DNA of 64,000 nt from Cyanidioschyzon merolae. Its lineage: Eukaryota. Below are positions 3,069 to 25,836 of the stretch, one piece after another (the stretch's first letter is position 1; every line of letters begins with the position of its first letter). The notes below the pieces were generated by a model, which saw only the letters and a program-made list of their open reading frames with translations, did no database searches and was not told where the DNA came from. The translations under genes and the position numbers were made by a program. The DNA is taken from the NCBI GenBank assembly GCA_000091205.1, contig AP006495.2; one strand, given 5' to 3'.

Positions 3069-3437
3069 TCAGCGGATCATCTCCGAGTGCGGAGGAAGCG
3101 AGCGCTCACACAACTCCGGCGGTGGGGGAACGTTGCGCTGGTACGTGCAGCCGCCTGGTAAATACGGTGCGGTGTAGGGCTCTGGGTGCCTCATCTCTAG
3201 CAAGCGACTGAGACCCCGGTTCAACAGGATCTGGGCCTCGCGAGGACCTGCGTTTTTATTGCGCTGAAACTCGGCTTGGATCTCTCGCGATCGCTCCAGC
3301 CACAAGTCAACGTCCACGAACCAGTCGCGCGCTGTCCGCAAAGCGTGACGATAGAGGCGCGTTACTCGCTGCTGGTGGGTCAGCCCCGGGGCGAACGGAG
3401 CTGCCCGCTGAGCTGGCATCGATACCGCGGCACCCAT
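3069..3437 (-). CDS. NDUFB9: NADH dehydrogenase (complex I) B22 subunit NDUFB9-like, LYR family
   Basis: The peptide LTHQQRVTRLYRHALRTARDW...EFQRNKN...RHPEPYTAPYLPGGCTYQRNVPPP parallels human NDUFB9: [21 protein letters not shown]...HPQPYIFPDSPGGTSYER. It has the LYR motif and the conserved HP-PY-PGG-Y-R block. The C-terminus is shorter than in metazoan proteins. Confidence 0.75.
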   Translation of the reverse strand: MGAAVSMPAQRAAPFAPGLTHQQRVTRLYRHALRTARDWFVDVDLWLERSREIQAEFQRNKNAGPREAQILLNRGLSRLLEMRHPEPYTAPYLPGGCTYQRNVPPPPELCERSLPPHSEMIR

Positions 3438-4410: not shown

Positions 4411-6132
4411 CTAACAGTGTGGACGAACCTGCAGCTCGTGCTGGAGCTCCGGCAGCCACCACTCCCGATCTGGATGCATCAGACGCTCCACGACAAAGCT
4501 CCAGTTTCGAGGTTGCGCCCAGCGCTCGCCGAAAAATGCACGCGGCATTGCGTGTCGACTTCGCCTCCACATGGGACGATTTGCCTTGCTAATGCGCTGT
4601 GGAGATGAACGCCCACTCCCAGGGACAGCACTGTTTTCGCCCCGCAGGCAAACATATTCCGGCCAGTACAGCGCGCCCGGAGGCTCGCCGACCGTCCGCA
4701 GTTGCCAAGGCGCCTGAACGAGGCTGCACGGCAAAGGCGCCGCCTCCGGATCGCTGTAATTTGATGGAAACTGCGGTGGTACCAGAACAGTGCTGTGTAC
4801 GGGCATCAGTCGAGCGACAAGCTGCGAGAAAGCGCTGCGAGACCCCACGAAGATATCTGCGCTCGTCATCTCGATCAGGGCGTCAATAGTAGTCATGTCC
4901 AGATGCTGCGTGATCTTGGCACCAGGAAAGCGCTCATACAACCACTGCTTAAGCCGGCTTGGATAACCATCCATGTCCACCAGCGGTGACTCGGAGAAAA
5001 TGCGAATACGAAGGAGGTGCGGAGCGCAAAAGACGGGTCCAGCGCGGTGGCAGTGAGCCTTGAATGCCGCGTCTGCAGCCGCCACATACCATGAATCAGG
5101 GAGGTTTCGTCGCAAGCCAGCTTCCACGTAGGCATTCGGCTTGTACATGGGATACCGCGGAACCTGGTCACCCCGTCGGACGTGAAGTGCGATGCTTACG
5201 GTACGCGAAAGTTCCGCAAAGTCGTCTGCATTCTGGTTTCGACGGCTTTCCATGAAGACTGCTCGCTGGCGCTGGAAGACGCTGCGCCACCACGAGGCCG
5301 TACACGCCCAGGAAGACGCCAACGCTCCACCAGGACTGAAAACAGCCTCGAACTGGAAAAAGAGTGCTCGTGTGCGGAGTGTGGGTTGGCGCTCCACAGC
5401 ACTCCGCCAATGTTGCAGGAGCGCGAGCAGTTCTCGCTCGTCTCTGTGCTTCAGAGTCGATGCAGTGATGCGAATTGCTATATGATCTGATGGGACTGCA
5501 GTTCGTGGCGTTGTGTAAAGCGACAAATTGAAAAACGCTTCAGCTTTGTCGCCGATACCGTGTCCAAGGCCGCGCATCGCCTCTGGGTCGTAGACGTGAC
5601 GCAAACCGAGCCGCTGAGCCAAATGGACGATACGGTTCATGGCGGAGATTGTATGTCCGAGTCCAGCCCTGGAGCAACATCCAGTAAGCGCGATGTAATC
5701 ATCTACGGAGCGCTTACATCCCAGCGGTACTCGAGCGCACCCGTCGAACTGCCTTGGCAATCGCAGGTCAGACGAGACGTTCCGAAAGGCGCGGGGCAGC
5801 CCATGGAGGACGCTCTGTGGCAACAGAAGCAGCAGGAGCCACAGCGACAGTAGCAGGAGTAGCAACTCTGCGACGCGGCGGTGTCTTCCTTGAAAGGAAC
5901 TGAACCAGAGAGCGTGTAGAACAGGTTGCAGGGTGCTTCCGAGGCCGCGGCTGCTGGACAGGTAGCGCCGCATCCGGCGGACCGCCTGTCTCGCGTCAGA
6001 GAGTGCTGTTGAGGTCGTAAGGTGCCGGCTCGTGCCATGGAAAACTGCGAGTTTTGGCCTCAACGCCTGCATAAGGCTTTCGTGGCCACCTTGGGACAAG
6101 TGCTCCAAGACATCGACGAACGCTGCGGTCAA
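4411..6132 (-). CDS. Type II membrane glycosyltransferase of the fucosyltransferase superfamily (GT11/GT23/GT65/GT68-like)
   Basis: N-terminal hydrophobic anchor (LLLLLLSLWLLLLLL). Conserved fucosyltransferase motif I HVRRGD (IALHVRRGDQVPR). NodZ/FUT8-like G-G-x-x-IS...GR block (AGLGHTISAMNRIVHLAQRLGLRH). Motif III FVGSRSAFSQLVARL. The true start may be an internal Met. Confidence 0.55.
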   Translation of the reverse strand: MTAAFVDVLEHLSQGGHESLMQALRPKLAVFHGTSRHLTTSTALSDARQAVRRMRRYLSSSRGLGSTLQPVLHALWFSSFQGRHRRVAELLLLLLSLWLLLLLLPQSVLHGLPRAFRNVSSDLRLPRQFDGCARVPLGCKRSVDDYIALTGCCSRAGLGHTISAMNRIVHLAQRLGLRHVYDPEAMRGLGHGIGDKAEAFFNLSLYTTPRTAVPSDHIAIRITASTLKHRDERELLALLQHWRSAVERQPTLRTRALFFQFEAVFSPGGALASSWACTASWWRSVFQRQRAVFMESRRNQNADDFAELSRTVSIALHVRRGDQVPRYPMYKPNAYVEAGLRRNLPDSWYVAAADAAFKAHCHRAGPVFCAPHLLRIRIFSESPLVDMDGYPSRLKQWLYERFPGAKITQHLDMTTIDALIEMTSADIFVGSRSAFSQLVARLMPVHSTVLVPPQFPSNYSDPEAAPLPCSLVQAPWQLRTVGEPPGALYWPEYVCLRGENSAVPGSGRSSPQRISKANRPMWRRSRHAMPRAFFGERWAQPRNWSFVVERLMHPDREWWLPELQHELQVRPHC

Positions 6133-7905: not shown

Positions 7906-8487
7906 GACTGCCTTGCTACACCCGCAATAAGAGTTATACCACTGGAGCAGATGCAACGCGGAGACAGAACGTCTGTGCCGTACCACTGAGGCTGTCGGCT
8001 CGAGGCGAGGTTCACTAGTCTCGGAATCGGGCCTCGACATCATTCTGGGGGCCTACAACCCGTACAGACAAGACTACTGCCTGCGGAGGCGCGAAGCGAT
8101 ATCCTACGATACTAGAACGACCAGGTCAACGCTCAGAAGGCGCCTACCTGCTTCGAGTCCCAGAATAAATTGCATTGCGGACAAGCTGCTCAGGTGTCAC
8201 GGCAACAGTAGGCCCGGGGAGAGCTTGAAGTATTAGCCCAGCAGATTCGTAAAGTCCGCGGGACCTGTCGCCTGGAAGGTAAACTTTCGACAATATGGAA
8301 ACCTTTTCCCGCTTTTGACGTTTATCATAGAGGAGGAAAGAAACCATTATCTCGTAGCTACCTAATGGTTCATTTCTCTCTCCCGTGCTAAGCTGCGCGA
8401 TGATCGTGCGCGATACAAGTTGACGAGGCCGCGCTCAACGTCTGCCCAGTGTCGTCGATTGTTGGAAAAAGCGTTCTTTGAACGGGT

Positions 8488-8522
8488 CCGCTGTGTGTGT
8501 GTGTGGGTGTGTGTGGGTGTGC
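8488..8522. repeat. (GT)n / GTGTGGGT microsatellite
   Basis: gtgtgtgtgtgtgtgggtgtgtgtgggtgtg; it creates a Cys/Val-rich spurious peptide in ORF 8478-8792. Confidence 0.9.
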
Positions 8523-8842
8523 TGCCTAGACCCGTGTCTTTGTGACCTGATAAAGCACTGCGTGCAGTGTTGGAAACAGCTCAAGCTCGCTCGGTTCGAA
8601 GGAGCGATAGGCTGTGACTGCTGTGCAATTTCGCGACTCGGGCTACCGGACTGGAGTGAGGCCCAAGTCGACGACCGTGCGTGCGCGCTTTTCGGACAGC
8701 GCAGCTGTTTCGGATTCTCCCAGCGCTCTCGCGTGGTGCTCGGGGTGTCAGTCACCGGCGACGTCGCTCACAAACACGCTCTGATCAGCTGACTCGTCAG
8801 GCACTGCATCAAGGAGAGGCAGTCTCGGTTCTGGAGTCTTGA

Positions 8843-10660
8843 GTGTCGATTTGCTCCACCTACCTTCGCGGACTGGACGGGAGGCACCGTGCATTGTATA
8901 GCGCGGCACCGAACGATAAGCTGACGTTTCCCTTGAGCAAGATTTGGGTGAGACGGCCAAGCATGCCGGCGCTGGCTCGGACAGTGCTTCGCACGGCGTT
9001 GTCGAAGGTTCTCCACCTGCATCGAGAGCGTCCGCTGCAGCACTGCCGCCGTTTCGGCGCACTAACCTCGAAACCGTACGCGTTTCGTGCTCGACCCTGG
9101 GAACTGAAAAGCACCGAATCGATCGATGTATTCGACGGTGTTGGTTCGAACATTCGCATTGATGCGGTTGGTACGGAAGTCCGTCGTATTTTACCGCGCT
9201 TGAACGAGGAGGTGAATGAAGAGTGGATCAGTGACAAGACGCGTTTCGCCTACGACGGCCTGAAACGGCAGCGCTTGACGGTTCCGATGGTGCGGATACA
9301 CACTGGTGAAGCGAACGAACAACTTGTCGGTGTGGACTGGTACAAAGCAAGGGCTATCCTAGTCAACAAGCTGGTGTCGGCCATTCGGGAGGCCGCCACC
9401 CCAGCAACAACTCAGCGATCTGCGTTCGAGGCCCATGCCATTATCGGGCCCTATGCAGATTGCGAAAGCATAGCAGCGCTACGGCGCATCTTTTACAGCA
9501 TGTTTCCTGAGGGTACCGCTTTTGTCCATGTTCAGGGACACGCGAATACGGGTACACCGCCGACGGACTTTCGCTACGCCTACTGTGCGAATACAACGCT
9601 AGCTGGTTTGGAACACGCCGATGTCATCCTTCTGGTGGCAACGAACCCGCGAGTGGAGGCGCCGCTCCTGAATAATCGTATCCGGAAAGCGGTCTTATTT
9701 GGGAATGCTCGAGTTGGCCTGATCGGCTGCCATGCCGACCTAACGTACAATCGTGAACACCTCTGGCATCTCGGGACCAGTCCCGCAACGCTTCTGCGGA
9801 TCGCCCAAGGTCGTCATGCTTTTTGCTCTGTTTTGGCCAAAGCGCAGCGACCGGCGATTATCGTGAGCCAACAGGCGTTCCAGAGACATGACGGGGCGGC
9901 TATTTTTGGCTGCCTCGCAACGTTGGTGGACCACGTCCCGCGACTTGTGCCCCGGGATGGCTCGTGGAATGGCCTGAACGTACTTCACACTGCCGCGAAT
10001 ACCGTTGGGGCGCTCGACCTTGGCTTTGATCATACGCTGAAAGGAAACCGCTGGATTGATCAGTCCGGGGCGCAACAAACCAGCGAACAGCCCTGGGCGC
10101 GTGCCAAGCTGCTCTATCTGCTGGGTGCCGATGATATCGATGGACTCGAGGAGCTCCCCGAGACCTGCTACGTGGTGTATCAGGGGCATCACGGAGACTA
10201 TGGAGCAAGCATCGCTGACCTGATCCTACCCGGTGCTGCGTATACCGAGAAGAACGGCACGTTTGTGAACACAGAGGGTCGTGTCCAGCGCACGGCACGC
10301 GCGTTCCTGCCTCCTGGCCAGGCCAAAGTCGACGCGGAAATTCTCGATGAGCTCTTGGTAGGTCTGGATCACGCTGCCGGATTTTTCGATGCAGCACAGG
10401 AAATGGAATTCCTGGCTCCTCATCTGGGTGTCCAGTATGGTTTACAGGAACCGGATCTCATTAGAACACCAAACACGGGACAGGTGCAGCTAGGCGGTGC
10501 GAAAGCAGAGCGCGCTCGTTCGTTGCCGCTGTCACCCATGCCGTTTGGACCGGTTATTGAGAATTTTTACATGACAGATCCGATTACCAGAGCGAGTGCT
10601 ACGATGGCGAAATGCGTGCGTGTTGCTCGCTATAGTAATTTTGAGGAATCCAGTTCGTAA
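8843..10660 (+). CDS. NDUFS1: NDUFS1/NuoG-like 75 kDa complex I subunit, C-terminal (molybdopterin-like) domain only, with a presequence-like N-terminus. The ORF opens with GTG at 8843; the first ATG is at 8963
   Basis: HCRRFGALTSKPYAFRARPWELKSTESIDVFDGVGSNIRIDAVGTEVRRILPRLNEEVNEEWISDKTRFAYDGLKRQRLTVPMVR is near-identical to human NDUFS1 residues about 235-320. Similarity continues to the end (IIYQGHHGDxGA, ADLILPGAAYTEKNGTFVNTEGRVQ, DFYMTDPITRASATMAKCV). No 2Fe-2S or 4Fe-4S cysteine motifs are encoded in frame upstream. The stretch MPALARTVLRTALSKVLHLHRERP looks like a mitochondrial presequence. Confidence 0.8.
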   Translation: MSICSTYLRGLDGRHRALYSAAPNDKLTFPLSKIWVRRPSMPALARTVLRTALSKVLHLHRERPLQHCRRFGALTSKPYAFRARPWELKSTESIDVFDGVGSNIRIDAVGTEVRRILPRLNEEVNEEWISDKTRFAYDGLKRQRLTVPMVRIHTGEANEQLVGVDWYKARAILVNKLVSAIREAATPATTQRSAFEAHAIIGPYADCESIAALRRIFYSMFPEGTAFVHVQGHANTGTPPTDFRYAYCANTTLAGLEHADVILLVATNPRVEAPLLNNRIRKAVLFGNARVGLIGCHADLTYNREHLWHLGTSPATLLRIAQGRHAFCSVLAKAQRPAIIVSQQAFQRHDGAAIFGCLATLVDHVPRLVPRDGSWNGLNVLHTAANTVGALDLGFDHTLKGNRWIDQSGAQQTSEQPWARAKLLYLLGADDIDGLEELPETCYVVYQGHHGDYGASIADLILPGAAYTEKNGTFVNTEGRVQRTARAFLPPGQAKVDAEILDELLVGLDHAAGFFDAAQEMEFLAPHLGVQYGLQEPDLIRTPNTGQVQLGGAKAERARSLPLSPMPFGPVIENFYMTDPITRASATMAKCVRVARYSNFEESSS

Positions 10661-12934
10661 ATGCCTTTGCTCAGAGCATGACCCTAGAGTGGAGTGGGAT
10701 ACCAGTAGCAACAGCAGCAACGGCAGCAGCAACTGAAGCAGGTTTTGCGCGGGTCGTGCGCTGGTGAGCGGTTGCCCTTGCGACGACGGAACCTATGATT
10801 GCTGAACAGAGGCCCCTGGTGATACGCACACGCTTTCAACAAGAATAGCTATGCCCAGTGCTTTCCTCTTAAAGAACAGCAAGCAGCTACCGCACCCGCC
10901 GTGTAGTCCCTTAAATGATGAAAACTGTACGACTAGAGGAGCAGAAATTACCGGCTTGCGTGTAGACGAAGGTTCGTCTTGGAACGAATCAGAGCCAAGC
11001 GGCAACACAAACCCATCCACGCGTACACACACATGAACCGCCTGCACGTGTACACGCCTATCCCCAGTCCCGCAGCATCCTATGGGATATGCGCTGTTTT
11101 CATTGTGCACGAGTTGCGTATGACTCATCCGCCACGGCAAGATAAACATGAAGCAGCCATGCAAGTGCTGGTTGCAATCAATCACAAAGCTTCACACTTG
11201 GAAATGTGAATTCTCGAATGCCTGTACCAAACTGCGTTTTTCGTTTTCGTCTGTCTGTCTCGCAGGAGTCCAACAATGCGATACATGCTGCGGAGAGGCG
11301 ACAGGTCGCGAACGTAGTTTGTGCTGCAACCGCTAGCTTGCGTAAATTGCCCTGTCTGTACAAGTCCGTCATGCTATGGTAAGCAGGTGGATGAAGTGAC
11401 CGCTTTTCTCGTCGTGCTTATGCTGGACGTCGTGCTCCCAAAACAGACCCTGTCAAACGCTGGCTACTGGAGTGTGTTGTCACCATTCCATACCACTCGT
11501 TACGTTCGCTAACAAATACTATCAAAGAAGCTGCAGGATGTGAAGGTTCCGCACCGTTGAATCAGAAGGTGATGGAGAGAAGCGATTCGACAAAGAGGAC
11601 TGCAGTGTTCCAGGGGAGACCATCACGCGATCGACAAGACACCATCGATGACGTATAGACATGCGAACGCTTCTCCCAGGAGAGGCAGATGTACGTCTTT
11701 CTTTATGGGAATTCATTTGGGCGAAATCTTACACCTGTATTCTGCGCGCAATTTGAGATGGGGTAACCGCTGTTCGCAGTGTGGAAACGAGCCAGAATGA
11801 AGACAAAATCAGATCTAGCCGCGATGCTACTGTGTGGTCGTCTGCAGATCGCCAAACGGAGAGCGACATCAACCAGCACATCTTTCGTCGAAGCATTGTA
11901 CGGCTTCTGCGTGCCCCAATGCTCTGCCTTGTTCGCAGATAAGGTCGTTTTACATCACTCGACAGCGGCGCGGCAGAGCGCAGCTGAGCTTGGCATCGAG
12001 CTGTGCTGTGCGTTCCGGCTGCTTCTCCTTTGTTCCATCGAGTCGAGGATGTGTTCTCTGTTGTAAACCGCTATTTCAGCACTCACAGATCTATCGACGA
12101 GTCGTTCGCATCCGTGTCATAAATATGGTTCCAGTAGTCGTTCGTTTCTACGTTCACCGGCCCGGAACATCTCCGTTGCGTCTCTGCTCTTGCGCGGGAG
12201 GGAACGGAAGGACCCGCCTCAGCTCCTAGGCATGCTCGCGACGGAGATGCTGACAACGAGGTTCTCACGGAATCGGGTATACACAGACAGAGAAAATGCG
12301 AAATGCAGTGCCCCCGTCGGCCGAGTGCGTCTCCGTCCCCTGGGAAAATGGGTACGGAGTACGGCAACCATTTCCATGCCACCCCGACATGCGATCGAAA
12401 ACCAGAAGAAATCAACTGACGAAGAAGAGTGAAATGCTCGTGGAAATAGGACGCAGAGTGACAGGAACGAAACCGTGACCGACCAGAGAGATCTGTCTGA
12501 AACCGATGTCGAGGCCTCTCAACTGGAACATATCTATGGGGAGAATACCCCAAAATATGTGATGCAGGATGCCATGAGGGATCGTGTAGCATCCTACTCG
12601 AGGAAGGCTGGCGTAGCTTCTCTCGCGTTGACGCACCTCGTCTAGGAATTGTTCGTTCGAGTTCCGGAATCAGGGATACCCACTGTCCGCATCCCTCTGG
12701 AGTGTATCGAGCAAACCTCAGAGCGACCACACAGCTGACGCTGGGATCAGGTGATACGATACCGCTCGCTGGAACGATTCGAAGTTTGCACACGCACGAG
12801 CCCGTGTCGAGTGCACAACGTCCCGAGCCGACGCCCCCAGAGGTATGGCAAAGCCGTTCAGTCACGATGATGCATCCGCTCCAGTAGTTTCGGCACCAAG
12901 TCGGGTGCCCACGACAGGCACTCGTCGCACGAGA

Positions 12935-13090
12935 GAAAATACGAAACGACCATAACATCCGAGAAGAAGTATGGGTAATGGAACTTGGAGGTAGGCGCTT
13001 CATGATGGACGCTTTCTCGAAAGCCATTATCGATCCCGAGTGCTGGGATCCATGGTCAATGGAAACGTTTTGTCATCCGGAAAAAAATTT
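12935..13090 (+). mobile_element. SINE-like short dispersed repeat, copy A
   Basis: gaaacgaccataacatccgagaagaagtatgggtaatggaacttggaggtagg ... catgatgg ... gaaagccattatcgatc ... ctgggatcc ... aaacgttttgtcatccggaaaaaaa. It is collinear with copies at 17455 and 50790 and reverse copies at 34050 and 7745, and has an A-rich 3' end. Confidence 0.6.
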
Positions 13091-13280: not shown

Positions 13281-14255
13281 ATGGTGCCGTGTCCTTTCGC
13301 TCAGCGTTTGACTGAACAATCCTCGTTGGGTGAATTGAACACCCCTGGAGAAGCCGAGGCCGAGAACGACCCAAGTCGACGGCCCCAGTGCCCATTTCAA
13401 CGGTCTGTCGAGAGCGGCACGGAAGCGCCGAGCCGCAGCGGTGACCAATGGACACACGCTCGCTCTGAAAGCATCCTGTGCCCGCTGTGTCATACACCGC
13501 CGGTGCCGCGCGCTGGCGGCTACGCCCTAGCACTGCCGTGCACACACGTGTACTGCGGCGCGTGCGCAGCGAACGGTGTACGCGACTGTCTACTCTGTGG
13601 GTGTACGGTCTCGGGGTTTGTGCAAGGCTCCGAGTACGTGAAGGAAGACGCACTGTTCGAGGATATTCGCCAGACGGCCGCAAAGTATTTGACGCTGAAC
13701 GCAGCTCAGCTATGCGTGCAGCTCGGTGTCAAGCGCCGAGAACCGTTCCTGCTTGAAACCGCTATTCGAACGTATGCACGTGAGCTTGAGTGGAGTGAGC
13801 AGAAAGAGGCCCTGACTCAATTGCAGGCTGAAGCAGTTTCTCCGGTTGCGTCAGCGACGTGCCCGTCGATTGCAGAGGGTTCCGCGTCAGAAGATGTTGT
13901 CGCGAACAACGGACCGTCCATGGAGCTTGCGGAAGACGCATGGCTAACAATGCCGAAACTGCGTGCGCGAGTACTCTACGCTGTGGCGTGTGGGATCCTC
14001 GCGGAAATGAAGCTTTCTGCCGACTGGTCGTCCCTGGAGCTTGCAACACGTTCCGATACTGTTCGAGAAGCATATCACTACGCAAAAACCTCAGTCGATG
14101 TTCTTCTTGGTCTAGATCGGTTGGGCTCACCATTCATTGAACAGGCTTTAGAGCAGAGTCTCATGCGTTTGGAATGGGCAGCGCGCGTGCTCAGAAACTT
14201 GCGATCATCGACTACGCGCGCAGACAAACTGCACCTGTCGACTGAAGCGGCTTAG
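13281..14255 (+). CDS. RING finger (C3HC4-like) protein, function unknown
   Basis: CPLCHTPPVPRAGGYALALPCTHVYCGACAANGVRDCLLCGC fits C-x2-C-x13-C-x-H-x2-C-x2-C-x7-C-x2-C. Long ORF with normal composition. Confidence 0.5.
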   Translation: MVPCPFAQRLTEQSSLGELNTPGEAEAENDPSRRPQCPFQRSVESGTEAPSRSGDQWTHARSESILCPLCHTPPVPRAGGYALALPCTHVYCGACAANGVRDCLLCGCTVSGFVQGSEYVKEDALFEDIRQTAAKYLTLNAAQLCVQLGVKRREPFLLETAIRTYARELEWSEQKEALTQLQAEAVSPVASATCPSIAEGSASEDVVANNGPSMELAEDAWLTMPKLRARVLYAVACGILAEMKLSADWSSLELATRSDTVREAYHYAKTSVDVLLGLDRLGSPFIEQALEQSLMRLEWAARVLRNLRSSTTRADKLHLSTEAA

Positions 14256-15361
14256 CCGGGCACCAGCCTCGCCAGGTTGCCAGCGGTGCGGCTTGCTGCC
14301 CGCTTGGCATGCAGAACGGGAACATTCTCAGTGGAGACGGCCTTGAGTGGGTGCGTACCTGGCTCGGAAGCACCGGCCAGCGCTATTGCATCGATGTCAG
14401 CGACAGCCGGTGACGCGGGTGATAGGCTCCTGTGGTGTGTCGATGACCGAGCGCCCTGTGCACCCTTTTCTGGTGTTGAGAATTCGGACAGCGCATCATG
14501 CACAGCGGGCGTGCAAGTTCTGGGATCATTTCGTTTGGCACGTTCCCGTTGAGCACAGGAGGCCGGGTCCTCGCGAGGGCACTCCGCCACAGCAGCGGCA
14601 GCTGCACCGCCACCGCTCAGGGCCAGCTGCCGGAGAGCAGCGAGCGTCTGGCGCCAGGACGCTGCAGGGCCCGCCACAGGCGATTCGTTGACTGCAGGTT
14701 CATCGCTTTGCGGCTGTGGAATAGCGCGGTTCGGAGAGTACGCCCAACTGGCAGCCGCAAGCAAGTCTGCGGTGGACGGCGACTTTGCAGCCGCACCGCT
14801 GCCCATGGATGCGGGAGCGTTTCGGGATTGGCGACTCGAGACGCGCACAGGCGATAGCACTAGGCTACTTCCTAGAAGCCGTCTTTGGGCCGGTGATGCA
14901 CGGACAGGGGTTAGCGTGACGCGGGACCCGTACATTGCCGCCGGTTTCATGGAGTCCTGTCGAGTCTTTTCTGGGGCGCGGGCTTCGTTTCCGGCGTTGG
15001 TGCCGATGGTCGCTGAAGTATGGCCAGTTTGTGGCAGTTCGTCGGTGCCGTCAACTCCGAACTCAAGTCTCCGTGGCTGCTGGAAAGCGTCCAGCTCGAG
15101 CTGACGACGCCGTCCGCGGTACAGAAATTGCTCGCCTTCCACAAGAGTTCGATGAAGTGCGGTGTGGCGGCGAGATCGGCTGCGACGGTCCAGCGGAGGC
15201 GCCGTCATCACCAGGGCAGTGTCCGTAGAGGATCTGTCGCAGATGCGACTCGCTCCACGCCGCTCGCTTGTCAACGGCGTCGACGGTAGCTCGAGCACTG
15301 GTACCGTCGACAGGCCTGCGGGCCGATGCAGCGACCTACTTGGCGAACACATGGAAATCAA
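14252..15361 (-). CDS. Hypothetical Ser/Ala/Pro/Arg-rich low-complexity protein; may be a chance ORF in very GC-rich DNA
   Basis: 369-aa ORF convergent on the RING gene, with the stop codons overlapping by 4 nt. No recognisable domain. The composition is typical of antisense or GC-driven ORFs. Confidence 0.25.
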   Translation of the reverse strand: MISMCSPSRSLHRPAGLSTVPVLELPSTPLTSERRGASRICDRSSTDTALVMTAPPLDRRSRSRRHTALHRTLVEGEQFLYRGRRRQLELDAFQQPRRLEFGVDGTDELPQTGHTSATIGTNAGNEARAPEKTRQDSMKPAAMYGSRVTLTPVRASPAQRRLLGSSLVLSPVRVSSRQSRNAPASMGSGAAAKSPSTADLLAAASWAYSPNRAIPQPQSDEPAVNESPVAGPAASWRQTLAALRQLALSGGGAAAAAVAECPREDPASCAQRERAKRNDPRTCTPAVHDALSEFSTPEKGAQGARSSTHHRSLSPASPAVADIDAIALAGASEPGTHPLKAVSTENVPVLHAKRAASRTAGNLARLVPG

Positions 15362-15664
15362 GCGGAGGAAAGCGTATCAAACACAGTTCTGCAGCGGTGC
15401 GTGGCGTCAGGGAGGGCTCCAAACGCGGTGCGTTCCGATAGGGTTTGATGGCAGCGTCGGCGTTTTGTGGTGCGAAGCGTTGCCTTCAGCAAGCACGCAA
15501 CAACAGGAAACAAAACTCAAGAACACTAGATCGGCTGATGCACCGCGTCCGTTGCCACAGATAGGACAAGATTGACACGTACGTTAGTACTGGAATATGC
15601 GCCACAGGTGCCAGAAGACGTGTTACGAGCGACTTGAAGAACGACGTGTCCGGAGCTTTTCTGC

Positions 15665-15718
15665 CGCACGCAATCGCACGCAATCGCACGCAATCGCACG
15701 CAATCGCACGCAATCGCA
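15665..15718. repeat. 10-bp tandem repeat (gcacgcaatc) x5
   Basis: Direct reading of gcacgcaatcgcacgcaatc... Confidence 0.9.
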
Positions 15719-15838
15719 GGCGAAGCAGGCACCGGCGCGCATCCCAAATCGTAACCGCCATTGGTGCGCGCCATGGTGAGCATGCTTTCTCCCGCGATGC
15801 CGTTTACGATTGCGGCCTGGGGGGTGGTTCCAAATTCG

Positions 15839-15961
15839 TTTGTGTGCGTGTGCGTGTGCGTGTGCGTGTGCGTGTGCGTGTGCGTGTGCGTGTGCGTGTG
15901 CGTGTGCGTGTGCGTGTGCGTGTGCGTGTGCGTGTGCGTGTGCGTGTGCGTGTGCGTGTGT
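15839..15961. repeat. (GTGTGC)n hexanucleotide microsatellite, about 20 units
   Basis: gtgtgcgtgtgcgtgtgc... over 120 bp. It generates the (HT)n and (VR)n/(CA)n ORFs 15526-16020, 15634-16164 and 15810-16061, which are artefacts. Confidence 0.95.
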
Positions 15962-21490: not shown

Positions 21491-21850
21491 TCAGACGGCA
21501 GCAGATCCACCTGCTGCTTCCTCCGTTATCGCTTTCAGAATATCCGAGTCGCCTGGATCTGTTATCGCCATCACCATAACTCGAAAATAACGCCCGCAAG
21601 CTGTACCGAGCTCTATCGAGCTGGCTGGATAGCGGTATACCTGCGCCTTGGCCAACATCGCATAGTAATCGAGGGTGCTCTTTCGCAGGCGCGGACAGTT
21701 ACTCGCGATGATAACAAGCTTACACTTACCCTGGCGAAGGCTCTTTAACGTGCTCTTATATCCAAGGTGATATCGACCGGACTTCATAACAAGCGCCAGA
21801 CGCGCGTTGATCGCTTCGGAAACGCTCCTGGTCTTGCGCGTAGCACTCAT
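21491..21850 (-). CDS. RPL30: 60S ribosomal protein L30e. The start is taken at the internal ATG at 21850-21848; the listed ORF extends further upstream
   Basis: [105 protein letters not shown] is collinear with eukaryotic RPL30 (human [92 protein letters not shown]). Confidence 0.9.
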
Positions 21851-22340
21851 GGTAAGCGGCGGTGCGTGAGCTTCAAGTGTATGTTCGAGCTGATCAACGA
21901 GACTTTCGAGAACTAGACTAGAGTGCAGCGCACGCACGAGACAGCGGAGCGTTCCGCGTAGGCCAGTGGATTCGTTCTTGCGTGCCGCTGCTGCGTAGCT
22001 ACAGCACAAATACACGTTTCGAGAATGAAGTTGTTCAGGGGCGCTGAAGCCGCAGCAGCGCGTAGCGCAGGCACCGCGACGCCGTCGTCGCCTGGCTCTA
22101 TAAAGCTGTACTATAATGTAATTTATGGTTCAAAACTTTCCATCACCAATCGTGTCGATCGCAACGTCACGCAGCGGATGCGCCTCAGCGCTCCGCGCTG
22201 CTCGAATACACAACATGTAGCGTGGCATATACACCATCGTGGTACAGGAAGCGTTTATGAAGTCACAGTGGCTACTGAACCAGTAGAAACTAGATGCACT
22301 GTCCTGGTGGCTACCGCTGTAGAGGTATTCCACGCTGAAA

Positions 22341-22736
22341 ATGAGTGAAATCGCCTGGTATAGGCTTCGAAACCTATATCGCAGTATCCTCCGGAAACAT
22401 CAACAGTGTCTGCCGTTGGAACTCCGCGTCCTCGGTGACCAGTACGTAGCAGAAGAGTTTCGACGAATGCGCGAATTCTTGTTGCGTTCCCAGTCTCAAA
22501 CTGCTAGTAGGCAGCTCTCCGAGTTCCTAGAGCAGTGGCAAATGTACCTTGAGAGCGTCGGCCCCGAAGGACTGACCACTGTGGACGTGGAACCGGCTCT
22601 GTGGCAGCAGCTCAGCCCGGAGCAGCGACTGCAGCTGGAGCGACTCCGCGCAACAGCAACAACGCGCGGAGAAGGCAAGGCGCCTGCAAGTGTGTTTGGG
22701 CGGGCAGGGCCCCCGACGAGATCGAGCTCCGAATAA
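22341..22736 (+). CDS. LYR-motif (Complex1_LYR family) small mitochondrial protein
   Basis: The N-terminus AWYRLRNLYRSILRKHQQ...LRVLGDQYVAEEFRRMRE fits the LYR family consensus L-Y-R...L-R...EF-R. The exact orthologue (NDUFA6, SDHAF, LYRM) is not resolved. Confidence 0.5.
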   Translation: MSEIAWYRLRNLYRSILRKHQQCLPLELRVLGDQYVAEEFRRMREFLLRSQSQTASRQLSEFLEQWQMYLESVGPEGLTTVDVEPALWQQLSPEQRLQLERLRATATTRGEGKAPASVFGRAGPPTRSSSE

Positions 22737-23940: not shown

Positions 23941-25836
23941 ATGTCAAGCCGTGCCGTTCGCAAGCTGCTCTCCGCGGACTCGGTCCCGGAAACGAACGCA
24001 AGCGAAGAGCCTGGCGTTGCGGTGGACGATCACTCGGTGGCTGCAAACGAGGCTCAGGTCGGTGTCCGGAACCCCTTCGCTGTGCTCGCTGACCAGCAGG
24101 AGCACGAGGATGGCTTCGGAGAACCTGAGAAACCTCAAAACCAGCTCTCTGATTCTGTGGAAACTTTTCTGGTGCCGGAATCAGGTGCACCGTCACGCCG
24201 TAAAGGCAGATCAAGACGAGCAAGCCGGGTTGCAGGCCAAAAAGTCTCAGCGGAAACGGAGTTTACTATAGGCTATCGGGAGCGCACCTTGCATGGCACC
24301 CGAAAGGACGCCTCTCGAGAACCACAAGTTGACGATGAAAACCTCAGCCATCACTCTGAACTGAAGCATCGTTGGTATGCACAAACATGTGCCGGATTCG
24401 AGCCCTTTGCTGTGGACACGAGCAAACTCAATGCGGACGGTGAGCTGAAGCACTTGTTCGGTCGTGAGGTCGTCGAGCGCGACCATCTCGACCAACAACG
24501 TGCCCAGTCCGCAACCGCTACCAGCAGTCGAGGCTCGCGGGCGATTCGCCAGCAGCAACGTCGTTATCGGGAACGCAACAAGTCGTCGCGATACGCGCTA
24601 GACCTGCGACGGCGCTCATTATTCGTGTACCCGAACCCGGACTGGTTTCAGTTGGTACGGGGCCTCACAATGGAGCCAGCACCAAACTGGAATGCGCCTC
24701 GTCCAGTGTATAGGTACCGCTTCCGAGATCCATACAATTCACTTGAGGAAGGTTTTGAGCAGGTGGTGCGCTCCGGAGACCATGAGCTTTTAATCGAGTT
24801 CTCATGGACGAATCCGTTTCACGTCGGCGCTCTGTTGCAGCTTTCGGAACTCTATCGCGTTTTCGCTGAGGCCGAACGCGAACAAGAGGCGATAGAGCGA
24901 GCGCTTTGGGCTCTAGAAATCAGTACACATCCGCGTTATCGACCGGGCGAGGCATATCTGCCTTTCGCATACGTTGAAAACCGACAGTACTACCGAGCGC
25001 TATGCTGCGCAGCGGAGCGCGCGCGAAGCAAAGGCGCCTACCGCTCCGCCACGGAAATCGCCAAGGTGCTCTGTACCCTCGATCCACCGGTCGACGAGAC
25101 AGGCTCGACAAGACGTCCGTGGAGCGACCCAGTAGGCGCGTTGCTGGTGATAGACGCGTACGCGTTACTGGCAAAGGAGTGGCAATGGATCTGCCAGTGC
25201 CTAGAAAGCGAACATCCTGCGGCGGTGTTGCTGCGCGATCTCCCGAATTGGCAGTTCAGCTATCTGTATGCGAAATACAAAAAGAATGGGATCGGAGCCT
25301 CGCAGATTCACGCGTCGCTAGTCGACGCGCTGCTCCTGAAGCAGCTACGCATGTGTGTGGAGCGCTTTCCTCATCTAGCTCGACTGCTCGCCTTCGATGC
25401 ACGTGACGGTATGGAGTCGTTGCCACTGCTGTGCCGCCGCGCGATGTTCGGCTACGCCTCACGTACCGCTGCTCTCTGGCGGAACAGTCCGCTCATGGAT
25501 TGTATCCGGCAGTGTCTGGGAACCTCAGACGCACGAAGTATTCCAGCGTACCCGATATCCACGACCGATGCGTCTTGGATCGGATGCGTTGGCTATAGCG
25601 ATGATATTCGGTACACGGAATGGATTCATCGAGGCGATACCGCTCCAGCGAATGGCAGTGTATCGTTCGGCGAGGAGGAGGCAGCTGCATCGGCAACGAC
25701 CATAGCGGATGAGCTGCAGTTCTTGTCCATGGGCACCAACACCGAATCAAACCTTGACACAAATGCGAGTTCAGAAGTGGAATCAGGCGAAATGACACCC
25801 AACGGATCCGATAGCGACGCAGTTGCCGAACGTTAG
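23941..25836 (+). CDS. TCF25: TCF25/Nulp1/Rqc1 family protein (ribosome quality control complex subunit)
   Basis: Central block PDWFQLVRGLTMEP...EEGFEQVVRSGDHELLIEFSWTNPFHVGALLQLSELYRV matches the TCF25 domain signature (NPYHVDSLLQLSE...). Acidic N- and C-terminal tails. Confidence 0.7.
   Translation: MSSRAVRKLLSADSVPETNASEEPGVAVDDHSVAANEAQVGVRNPFAVLADQQEHEDGFGEPEKPQNQLSDSVETFLVPESGAPSRRKGRSRRASRVAGQKVSAETEFTIGYRERTLHGTRKDASREPQVDDENLSHHSELKHRWYAQTCAGFEPFAVDTSKLNADGELKHLFGREVVERDHLDQQRAQSATATSSRGSRAIRQQQRRYRERNKSSRYALDLRRRSLFVYPNPDWFQLVRGLTMEPAPNWNAPRPVYRYRFRDPYNSLEEGFEQVVRSGDHELLIEFSWTNPFHVGALLQLSELYRVFAEAEREQEAIERALWALEISTHPRYRPGEAYLPFAYVENRQYYRALCCAAERARSKGAYRSATEIAKVLCTLDPPVDETGSTRRPWSDPVGALLVIDAYALLAKEWQWICQCLESEHPAAVLLRDLPNWQFSYLYAKYKKNGIGASQIHASLVDALLLKQLRMCVERFPHLARLLAFDARDGMESLPLLCRRAMFGYASRTAALWRNSPLMDCIRQCLGTSDARSIPAYPISTTDASWIGCVGYSDDIRYTEWIHRGDTAPANGSVSFGEEEAAASATTIADELQFLSMGTNTESNLDTNASSEVESGEMTPNGSDSDAVAER

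Follow-up and report, generated by a model that had tools for sequence, protein, structure and literature searches.

Two nuclear genes very probably share the coding of the 75-kDa complex I subunit in Cyanidioschyzon merolae and other red algae

Introduction

Can a gene for the 75-kDa subunit of mitochondrial complex I (NDUFS1, NuoG or Nad11) do without the entire part that binds the iron-sulfur (Fe-S) clusters, and if so, where is that part encoded? This question is raised by a locus of the nearly intron-free red alga Cyanidioschyzon merolae. The window, i.e. the whole stretch of DNA that was analysed, comprises 64,000 nucleotides (nt) of contig AP006495.2 and is nuclear DNA of C. merolae. 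An earlier note on this stretch had observed that similarity to NDUFS1 sets in abruptly within an open reading frame (ORF) on the plus strand, and considered a gene fission, a domain-loss paralogue, and an unrecognised exon or frameshift as explanations. Here, we report evidence which makes us highly confident of the first of these: the window gene codes for the C-terminal half (C-half) of an NDUFS1/Nad11 whose coding is divided between two nuclear genes in C. merolae and, among the red algae sampled, in members of five classes.

Results

The window gene encodes the C-terminal half of NDUFS1

The gene and its parts are located as follows.

8963..10660, plus strand: coding sequence of the C-half of the split NDUFS1; 565 amino acids (aa) and the stop codon, which is included; product 100% identical to BAM80927.1 and aligned with residues 228-714 of mouse NDUFS1
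8963..9055, plus strand: basic leader of 31 residues, a putative mitochondrial presequence; seven Arg or Lys, one Asp or Glu
9056..9085, plus strand: junction peptide GALTSKPYAF, the first NDUFS1-homologous residues; identical in 48 of 48 C-halves; tblastn matches start at 9053 or 9056
9104..9256, plus strand: Fer4_NDSU1 domain without cysteine ligands; Pfam PF22151, E 2e-27; residues 32-140 are free of cysteine
9272..10354, plus strand: molybdopterin-oxidoreductase-like domain; Pfam PF00384, E 1.8e-79
10475..10615, plus strand: C-terminal domain NADH_dhqG_C; Pfam PF09326, E 1.1e-14

The plus-strand ORF spans 8843-10660 and has its first ATG at 8963, so that it stays in frame for 40 codons further upstream. 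The 565-aa product is identical over its full length to a protein of C. merolae 10D (BAM80927.1 / XP_005536963.1). Comparison with solved structures aligns residues 31-555 with mouse NDUFS1 228-714 (E about 1e-113), and nothing before residue 31 aligns to any of them. The similarity to NDUFS1/NuoG thus runs from GALTSKPYAF to the C-terminus and is preceded by the leader, MPALARTVLRTALSKVLHLHRERPLQHCRRF.

All three domains listed above score well over the Pfam cut-offs, and the same search finds no Fer2_4, NADH-G_4Fe-4S_3 or Fer4_Nqo3 in the window ORF. Absent from it are the 2Fe-2S domain with the four cysteines of N1b, the His-Cys3 site of N5 and the Cys4 site of N4. When the first 290 aa of six full-length homologues were used as tblastn queries, the matches began only at 9053/9056 and took in the junction peptide as well as the beginning of Fer4_NDSU1. 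Neither these queries nor the true C. merolae N-terminal half (N-half, see below) found anything else in the 64-kb window, the best other match having an E-value of 0.38. The protein contains eight scattered cysteines in total and is therefore predicted to bind no cluster, in spite of its product name 'iron-sulfur protein'.

The earlier note had listed cluster N7 with N1b, N5 and N4 as missing from the frame. This holds for the latter three. N7 has to be taken off the list: some bacterial enzymes hold it in their Fer4_NDSU1 domain, it is known to be absent from mitochondrial enzymes, and the domain itself is kept in the window protein.

The Fe-S half is a separate gene on another contig

With NuoG sequences numbering tens of thousands, a red-algal N-terminal fragment was unlikely to come up in nearest-neighbour searches. 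The N-half was searched for exhaustively with HMMER against 1.84 billion cluster representatives, using as query the 200-residue N-terminal domain of a full-length fungal homologue. Several short proteins among the best 150 matches combine an N-terminal extension with the whole domain and end soon after CPVG. A cluster look-up identified one of these, P0239, as BAM82506.1 / XP_005538542.1 of C. merolae 10D, a protein of 278 aa whose product name is identical to that of the window gene. A single-sequence AlphaFold model of the N-domain, intended for a fold search, was discarded at a predicted local distance difference test (pLDDT) score of 37. A scan of metagenomes with a degenerate DNA pattern was considered and rejected, as the eukaryotic and bacterial consensus sequences differ at none of the columns that both conserve.

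BAM82506.1 is encoded by a complete ORF that includes a stop codon and a leader of its own. This leader of about 70 residues is rich in Arg, Ser and Thr, and is followed by Fer2_4, NADH-G_4Fe-4S_3 and Fer4_Nqo3. None of the twelve ligand positions of N1b, N5 and N4 varies across 86 N-only sequences, BAM82506.1 among them. Since their domains and ligands are complementary, BAM80927.1 and BAM82506.1 together hold every part of a canonical NDUFS1. The N-half lies on a contig of 1,253,087 bp and the window gene on one of 866,983 bp; the chromosomal separation of the two rests on these contig sizes, as reported for the two clusters, and in view of the large contigs both genes are taken as nuclear. 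The suggested fission, with the Fe-S half elsewhere in the same genome, is thus borne out.

The break lies at a domain boundary and duplicates ten residues

The break falls where the Fe-S domain gives way to the molybdopterin-like domain. In all 65 full-length proteins the motif D(L/I)CPV is found, and GALTSKPYAF starts three residues past the position that the last N4 cysteine holds in unsplit proteins. BAM82506.1 in turn extends 10 residues beyond CPV, and its C-terminal end reads ...DLCPVGALTRKRYEH (also given as ...SGNVIDLCPVGALTRKRYEH). Residues 269-278 of P0239 are a copy of the junction peptide, which is degenerate compared to the window copy at 9056-9085. The N-halves continue after CPV with G-A-(L/F/I)-T-x-K-x-Y-x-F, where 84 of 86 sequences keep T, 80 each keep K and F, and 79 keep Y, and close with a variable tail of about 10 residues in Cyanidiales and 55-75 residues in most others. 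On the other side, the junction region of the C-half is 74-81% identical to canonical NDUFS1 over the tblastn matches. Only one of the two copies of the junction peptide can occupy the canonical position beside cluster N4.

The residues directly before GALTSKPYAF follow a pattern of their own, a conserved (I/L)-R-(A/P)-V. Arg stands at position -3 before GALT in 37 of 48 C-only orthologues, Cys in one of 48. This corrects the view that the cysteine of the HCRRF motif before GALT is left over from the last N4 ligand: its position is -4, and that of the ligand (the C of CPV) is -3. The extent of the similarity, from GALTSKPYAF to the C-terminus, had been recognised correctly. Mitochondrial processing peptidase follows an R-3 rule, with Arg at -3 of the cleavage site, and the Arg before GALT would fit such a site. 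The leaders of the C-half orthologues are 21-91 aa long and non-homologous to one another, and those of both C. merolae halves are basic, poor in acidic residues and unrelated to NDUFS1. A mitochondrial presequence is a plausible reading of the C-half leader.

Separate N- and C-halves are found across the sampled red algae

Searching with the C-half gave 49 clusters of 515-590 aa, all of which lack the N-terminal domains. Among the C-halves that could be named are those of Cyanidiococcus, Cyanidium, Galdieria (three species), Hildenbrandia, Porphyridium and Agarophyton, with Porphyra added via cluster look-up. The named N-only proteins from the N-half search come from Cyanidiococcus, Porphyridium, Timspurckia, Rhodosorus, Pyropia, Agarophyton, Gracilariopsis and Gracilaria; three N-only representatives of unnamed source (P0149, P0151 and P0170) stand apart from the named red algae and were not counted as red-algal. 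Accordingly, both halves are named as separate proteins in C. merolae, Cyanidiococcus, Porphyridium and Agarophyton, and one half each in Galdieria, Cyanidium, Porphyra, Pyropia, Rhodosorus, Timspurckia, Gracilariopsis, Gracilaria and Hildenbrandia. No red-algal protein with both domain sets occurs among the best 120 matches of either half.

The two halves lie on contigs of different size in C. merolae, Cyanidiococcus, Porphyridium purpureum and Agarophyton chilense. In Galdieria, Porphyridium and Cyanidiococcus, gene tables and tblastn showed no N-half gene at a distance of up to 10 kb from that of the C-half. The C-halves show 49-60% identity across red-algal lineages and 41-49% to full-length proteins, and 48 C-only orthologues from independent genomes and transcriptomes have a leader followed by GALTSKPYAF. 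In a neighbor-joining (NJ) tree with fungal, animal, filasterean and alphaproteobacterial sequences, the red-algal C-halves form one clade in 100 of 100 bootstraps. This fits a single old fission within the limits of a narrow outgroup.

N-only NDUFS1 proteins with a leader and with a tail after CPVGALT, like those of the red-algal N-halves, were also observed in glaucophytes: P0349 from the transcriptome of Gloeochaete wittrockiana (302 aa) and P0385, gene model tig00000101_g4446.t1 (285 aa). As nad11 is present in glaucophyte mitochondrial genomes (PMC4224345), glaucophytes may have a split subunit as well, perhaps in the manner of the eustigmatophytes described below.

Discussion

A proposed assembly of the subunit and the points against it

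If the window gene and its partner are the two halves of one subunit, each half would be imported into mitochondria separately, with subsequent removal of its leader, and within the NADH-oxidising module the two would jointly restore the fold of NDUFS1. The small half would take up electrons from the flavoprotein and hand them on to the remaining clusters of the chain via N1b, N4 and N5, while the large half would serve only as a cofactor-free scaffold, as this domain does in unsplit mitochondrial enzymes. From its conservation, we infer that the C-half sits in red-algal complex I.

Four observations weigh against this interpretation or parts of it. Firstly, the earlier note had described the leader as Arg-rich and amphipathic. 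Its basic character is evident from seven basic residues and one acidic one, but the amphipathicity of the C-half leader is reached by 17% of shuffles and hence does not go beyond composition. Secondly, the outgroup of the C-half tree was narrow, with plants, glaucophytes and stramenopiles left out. Thirdly, the NJ tree of the N-domain gives no independent support for a single origin of the N-halves: bootstrap values are 1-16% for four groupings, namely the red-algal N-halves alone or together with the glaucophyte and/or the eustigmatophyte N-only proteins. Fourthly, the C-terminal part appears to be dispensable or replaced in other Euglenozoa (PMC12699882), so that incorporation of the red-algal C-half into the complex is deduced from its conservation.

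Alternative explanations

The last point leads to the alternative that survives best, which we nevertheless consider very unlikely. It accepts a real fission and holds that only the Fe-S half works in complex I, the C-half having become a relic with a different role or none, in line with the reading for diplonemids and kinetoplastids, in which the C-terminal part is missing. That Euglenozoa manage without the canonical C-terminal part (PMC12699882) and that the C-half carries no cofactor ligands would agree with it. The strict conservation of the C-half speaks against it: the protein is kept with its leader in every red-algal lineage sampled, the junction peptide is invariant and the terminal domain intact. 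Moreover, stramenopiles with the same split keep both parts (PMC4824035).

We give hardly any credence to the domain-loss paralogue that had been suggested for this locus, according to which red algae also keep a full-length NDUFS1 and the truncated copy serves in another role. Truncated paralogues exist in the molybdopterin family generally, and nothing direct favours this explanation here. It finds no support since no full-length red-algal copy was found: among the best 120 matches per half there are dozens of single-half proteins and not one with both domains. The close resemblance of the C-half junction region to canonical NDUFS1, as given above, is a further point against it.

That a frameshift in an assembled (TG)n tract or a missed upstream exon hides a normal full-length NDUFS1 can be dismissed as practically excluded, for although a (TG)15 tract lies upstream and the frame reaches 40 codons above the ATG, the window holds no N-terminal similarity elsewhere, 48 independent orthologues share the start with leader and GALTSKPYAF, and the N-half is a complete ORF with leader and stop on another contig.

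Two features of the upstream region are concerned here.

8478..8792, plus strand: spurious upstream ORF with the peptide 'HCVQCWKQ...', outside the gene; no Pfam match, similarity at the shuffle mean, unconserved in Cyanidiococcus
8492..8521, no strand assigned: (TG)15 microsatellite in upstream non-coding DNA, detected by Tandem Repeats Finder, about 440 nt before the ATG

The (TG)15 tract is unnecessary for explaining the gene structure. A frame at 8550-8620 ('HCVQCWKQLKLARFEGAIG'), in which a faint likeness to the N7 signature had been seen, was tried as an Fe-S remnant and rejected as chance. It has no Pfam match. Aligned to the real N-half by Smith-Waterman, it scores 30, which is exactly the mean of 1000 shuffles, and 47% of these shuffles reach that value. 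The region upstream of the gene shows no conservation compared to Cyanidiococcus, the closest relative.

Relation to known split and unsplit subunits

Splits of NDUFS1/Nad11 are already known, and both C. merolae gene models have been public for years under one product name. In stramenopiles, a split nad11/Nad11 was described for eustigmatophytes, the PX clade including brown algae, some diatoms, bicosoecids and labyrinthulids (PMC4824035). It arose at this boundary at least four times, and one part is sometimes nuclear (PMC4824035; PMC7194472). Brown algae have a nucleus-encoded C-terminal part with a predicted transit peptide, and eustigmatophytes a nuclear N-terminal part with a novel C-terminal tail (PMC4824035). 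The red-algal split resembles these cases in that the break separates the Fe-S N-terminal region from the molybdopterin-like C-terminal region into individual polypeptides. It differs from them in that one part of the stramenopile protein is usually mitochondrial, whereas the red-algal mitochondrial genome contains no nad11 (PMC7194472). The red-algal C-halves form a clade of their own, though in a tree that included no stramenopile sequences, and the red-algal split is presumably independent of the stramenopile events.

The two-part subunit of Euglena gracilis, NDUFS1A/NDUFS1B (PDB 8iuf), was seen with both parts together in the structure of complex I determined by cryo-electron microscopy (cryo-EM), and its authors noted that no split hydrophilic core subunit had previously been reported in eukaryotic complex I (PMC10884005). 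As in the red algae, both parts are nucleus-encoded and comprise an Fe-S part and a scaffold part. The breaks are not the same. In Euglena it falls inside the beta-sheet of subdomain II, and the red-algal one lies about 100 residues earlier. The 385-aa NDUFS1A accordingly includes the Fer4_NDSU1 region, and residues 30-107 of the C-half align with residues 250-333 of 8iuf_1A; the red-algal split is thus not of the Euglena type. In diplonemids and kinetoplastids only the N-terminal part was found (PMC12699882).

Compared to an unsplit NDUFS1/NuoG such as the mouse protein (PDB 6g2j, chain G), the sum of both C. merolae proteins has all domains and the ligands of N1b, N4 and N5. Unlike it, they are encoded by two genes, carry two leaders and a duplicated junction peptide, and the window protein is predicted to bind no Fe-S cluster at all. 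In full-text searches of the literature we found neither a description of the red-algal split nor an identifier for a second '75kDa' gene.

A possible origin of the split

Both halves carry the same ten residues, and this overlap suggests a duplication followed by complementary truncation. A more far-reaching version of this idea, in which the fission took that path, the two junction copies act as an intermolecular clasp and the event may predate the red algae, as the like architecture of the glaucophyte N-only proteins would suggest, is speculative and on balance we regard it as rather unlikely. If the event did predate the red algae, the split could serve as a rare genomic marker of how the lineages of Archaeplastida branched.

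Neighbouring genes in the window

A 122-aa ORF at 3069-3437 on the minus strand has a Complex1_LYR domain and an NDUFB9-like 'HPEPYTAPYLPGGCTYQRN' motif; the C-half gene of NDUFS1, on the opposite strand, follows 5.5 kb further on. By these features the ORF probably encodes the B22 accessory subunit of complex I. In Cyanidiococcus an LYR gene occupies the same relative place (L004 6962-7504). Further genes encode a Complex1_LYR_2 protein (22341-22736, plus strand), a ribosomal protein of the L7Ae/L30e family (21491-22015, minus strand), a WD40 protein (11-1264) and Tcf25 (23941-25836). Their order is that found around the Cyanidiococcus orthologue (L004), and local synteny is thus conserved while the intergenic sequence cannot be aligned.

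The flanking ORFs at 4411-6132 (minus), 12083-13027 (minus), 13281-14255 (plus) and 14252-15361 (minus) encode 314-573 aa without a Pfam match. The one of 573 aa has a positional counterpart of 554 aa in Cyanidiococcus, likewise without a Pfam match. At about 15560-15960 we observe a long (CA)n/(GT)n microsatellite, intergenic and of low complexity, with poly-His-Thr and poly-Arg-Val/Cys-Val in the overlapping ORFs.

Significance of the split

The red-algal split reveals no new kind of mechanism. It corrects a misleading annotation, in which a protein predicted to bind no cluster is named an iron-sulfur protein. It also adds a whole phylum to the lineages with a two-piece 75-kDa subunit, here with both pieces nuclear and presumably imported separately. 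Being genetically tractable, C. merolae is a convenient organism in which to study how the NADH-oxidising module is assembled from halves, and whether the large cofactor-free domain is required in the first place.

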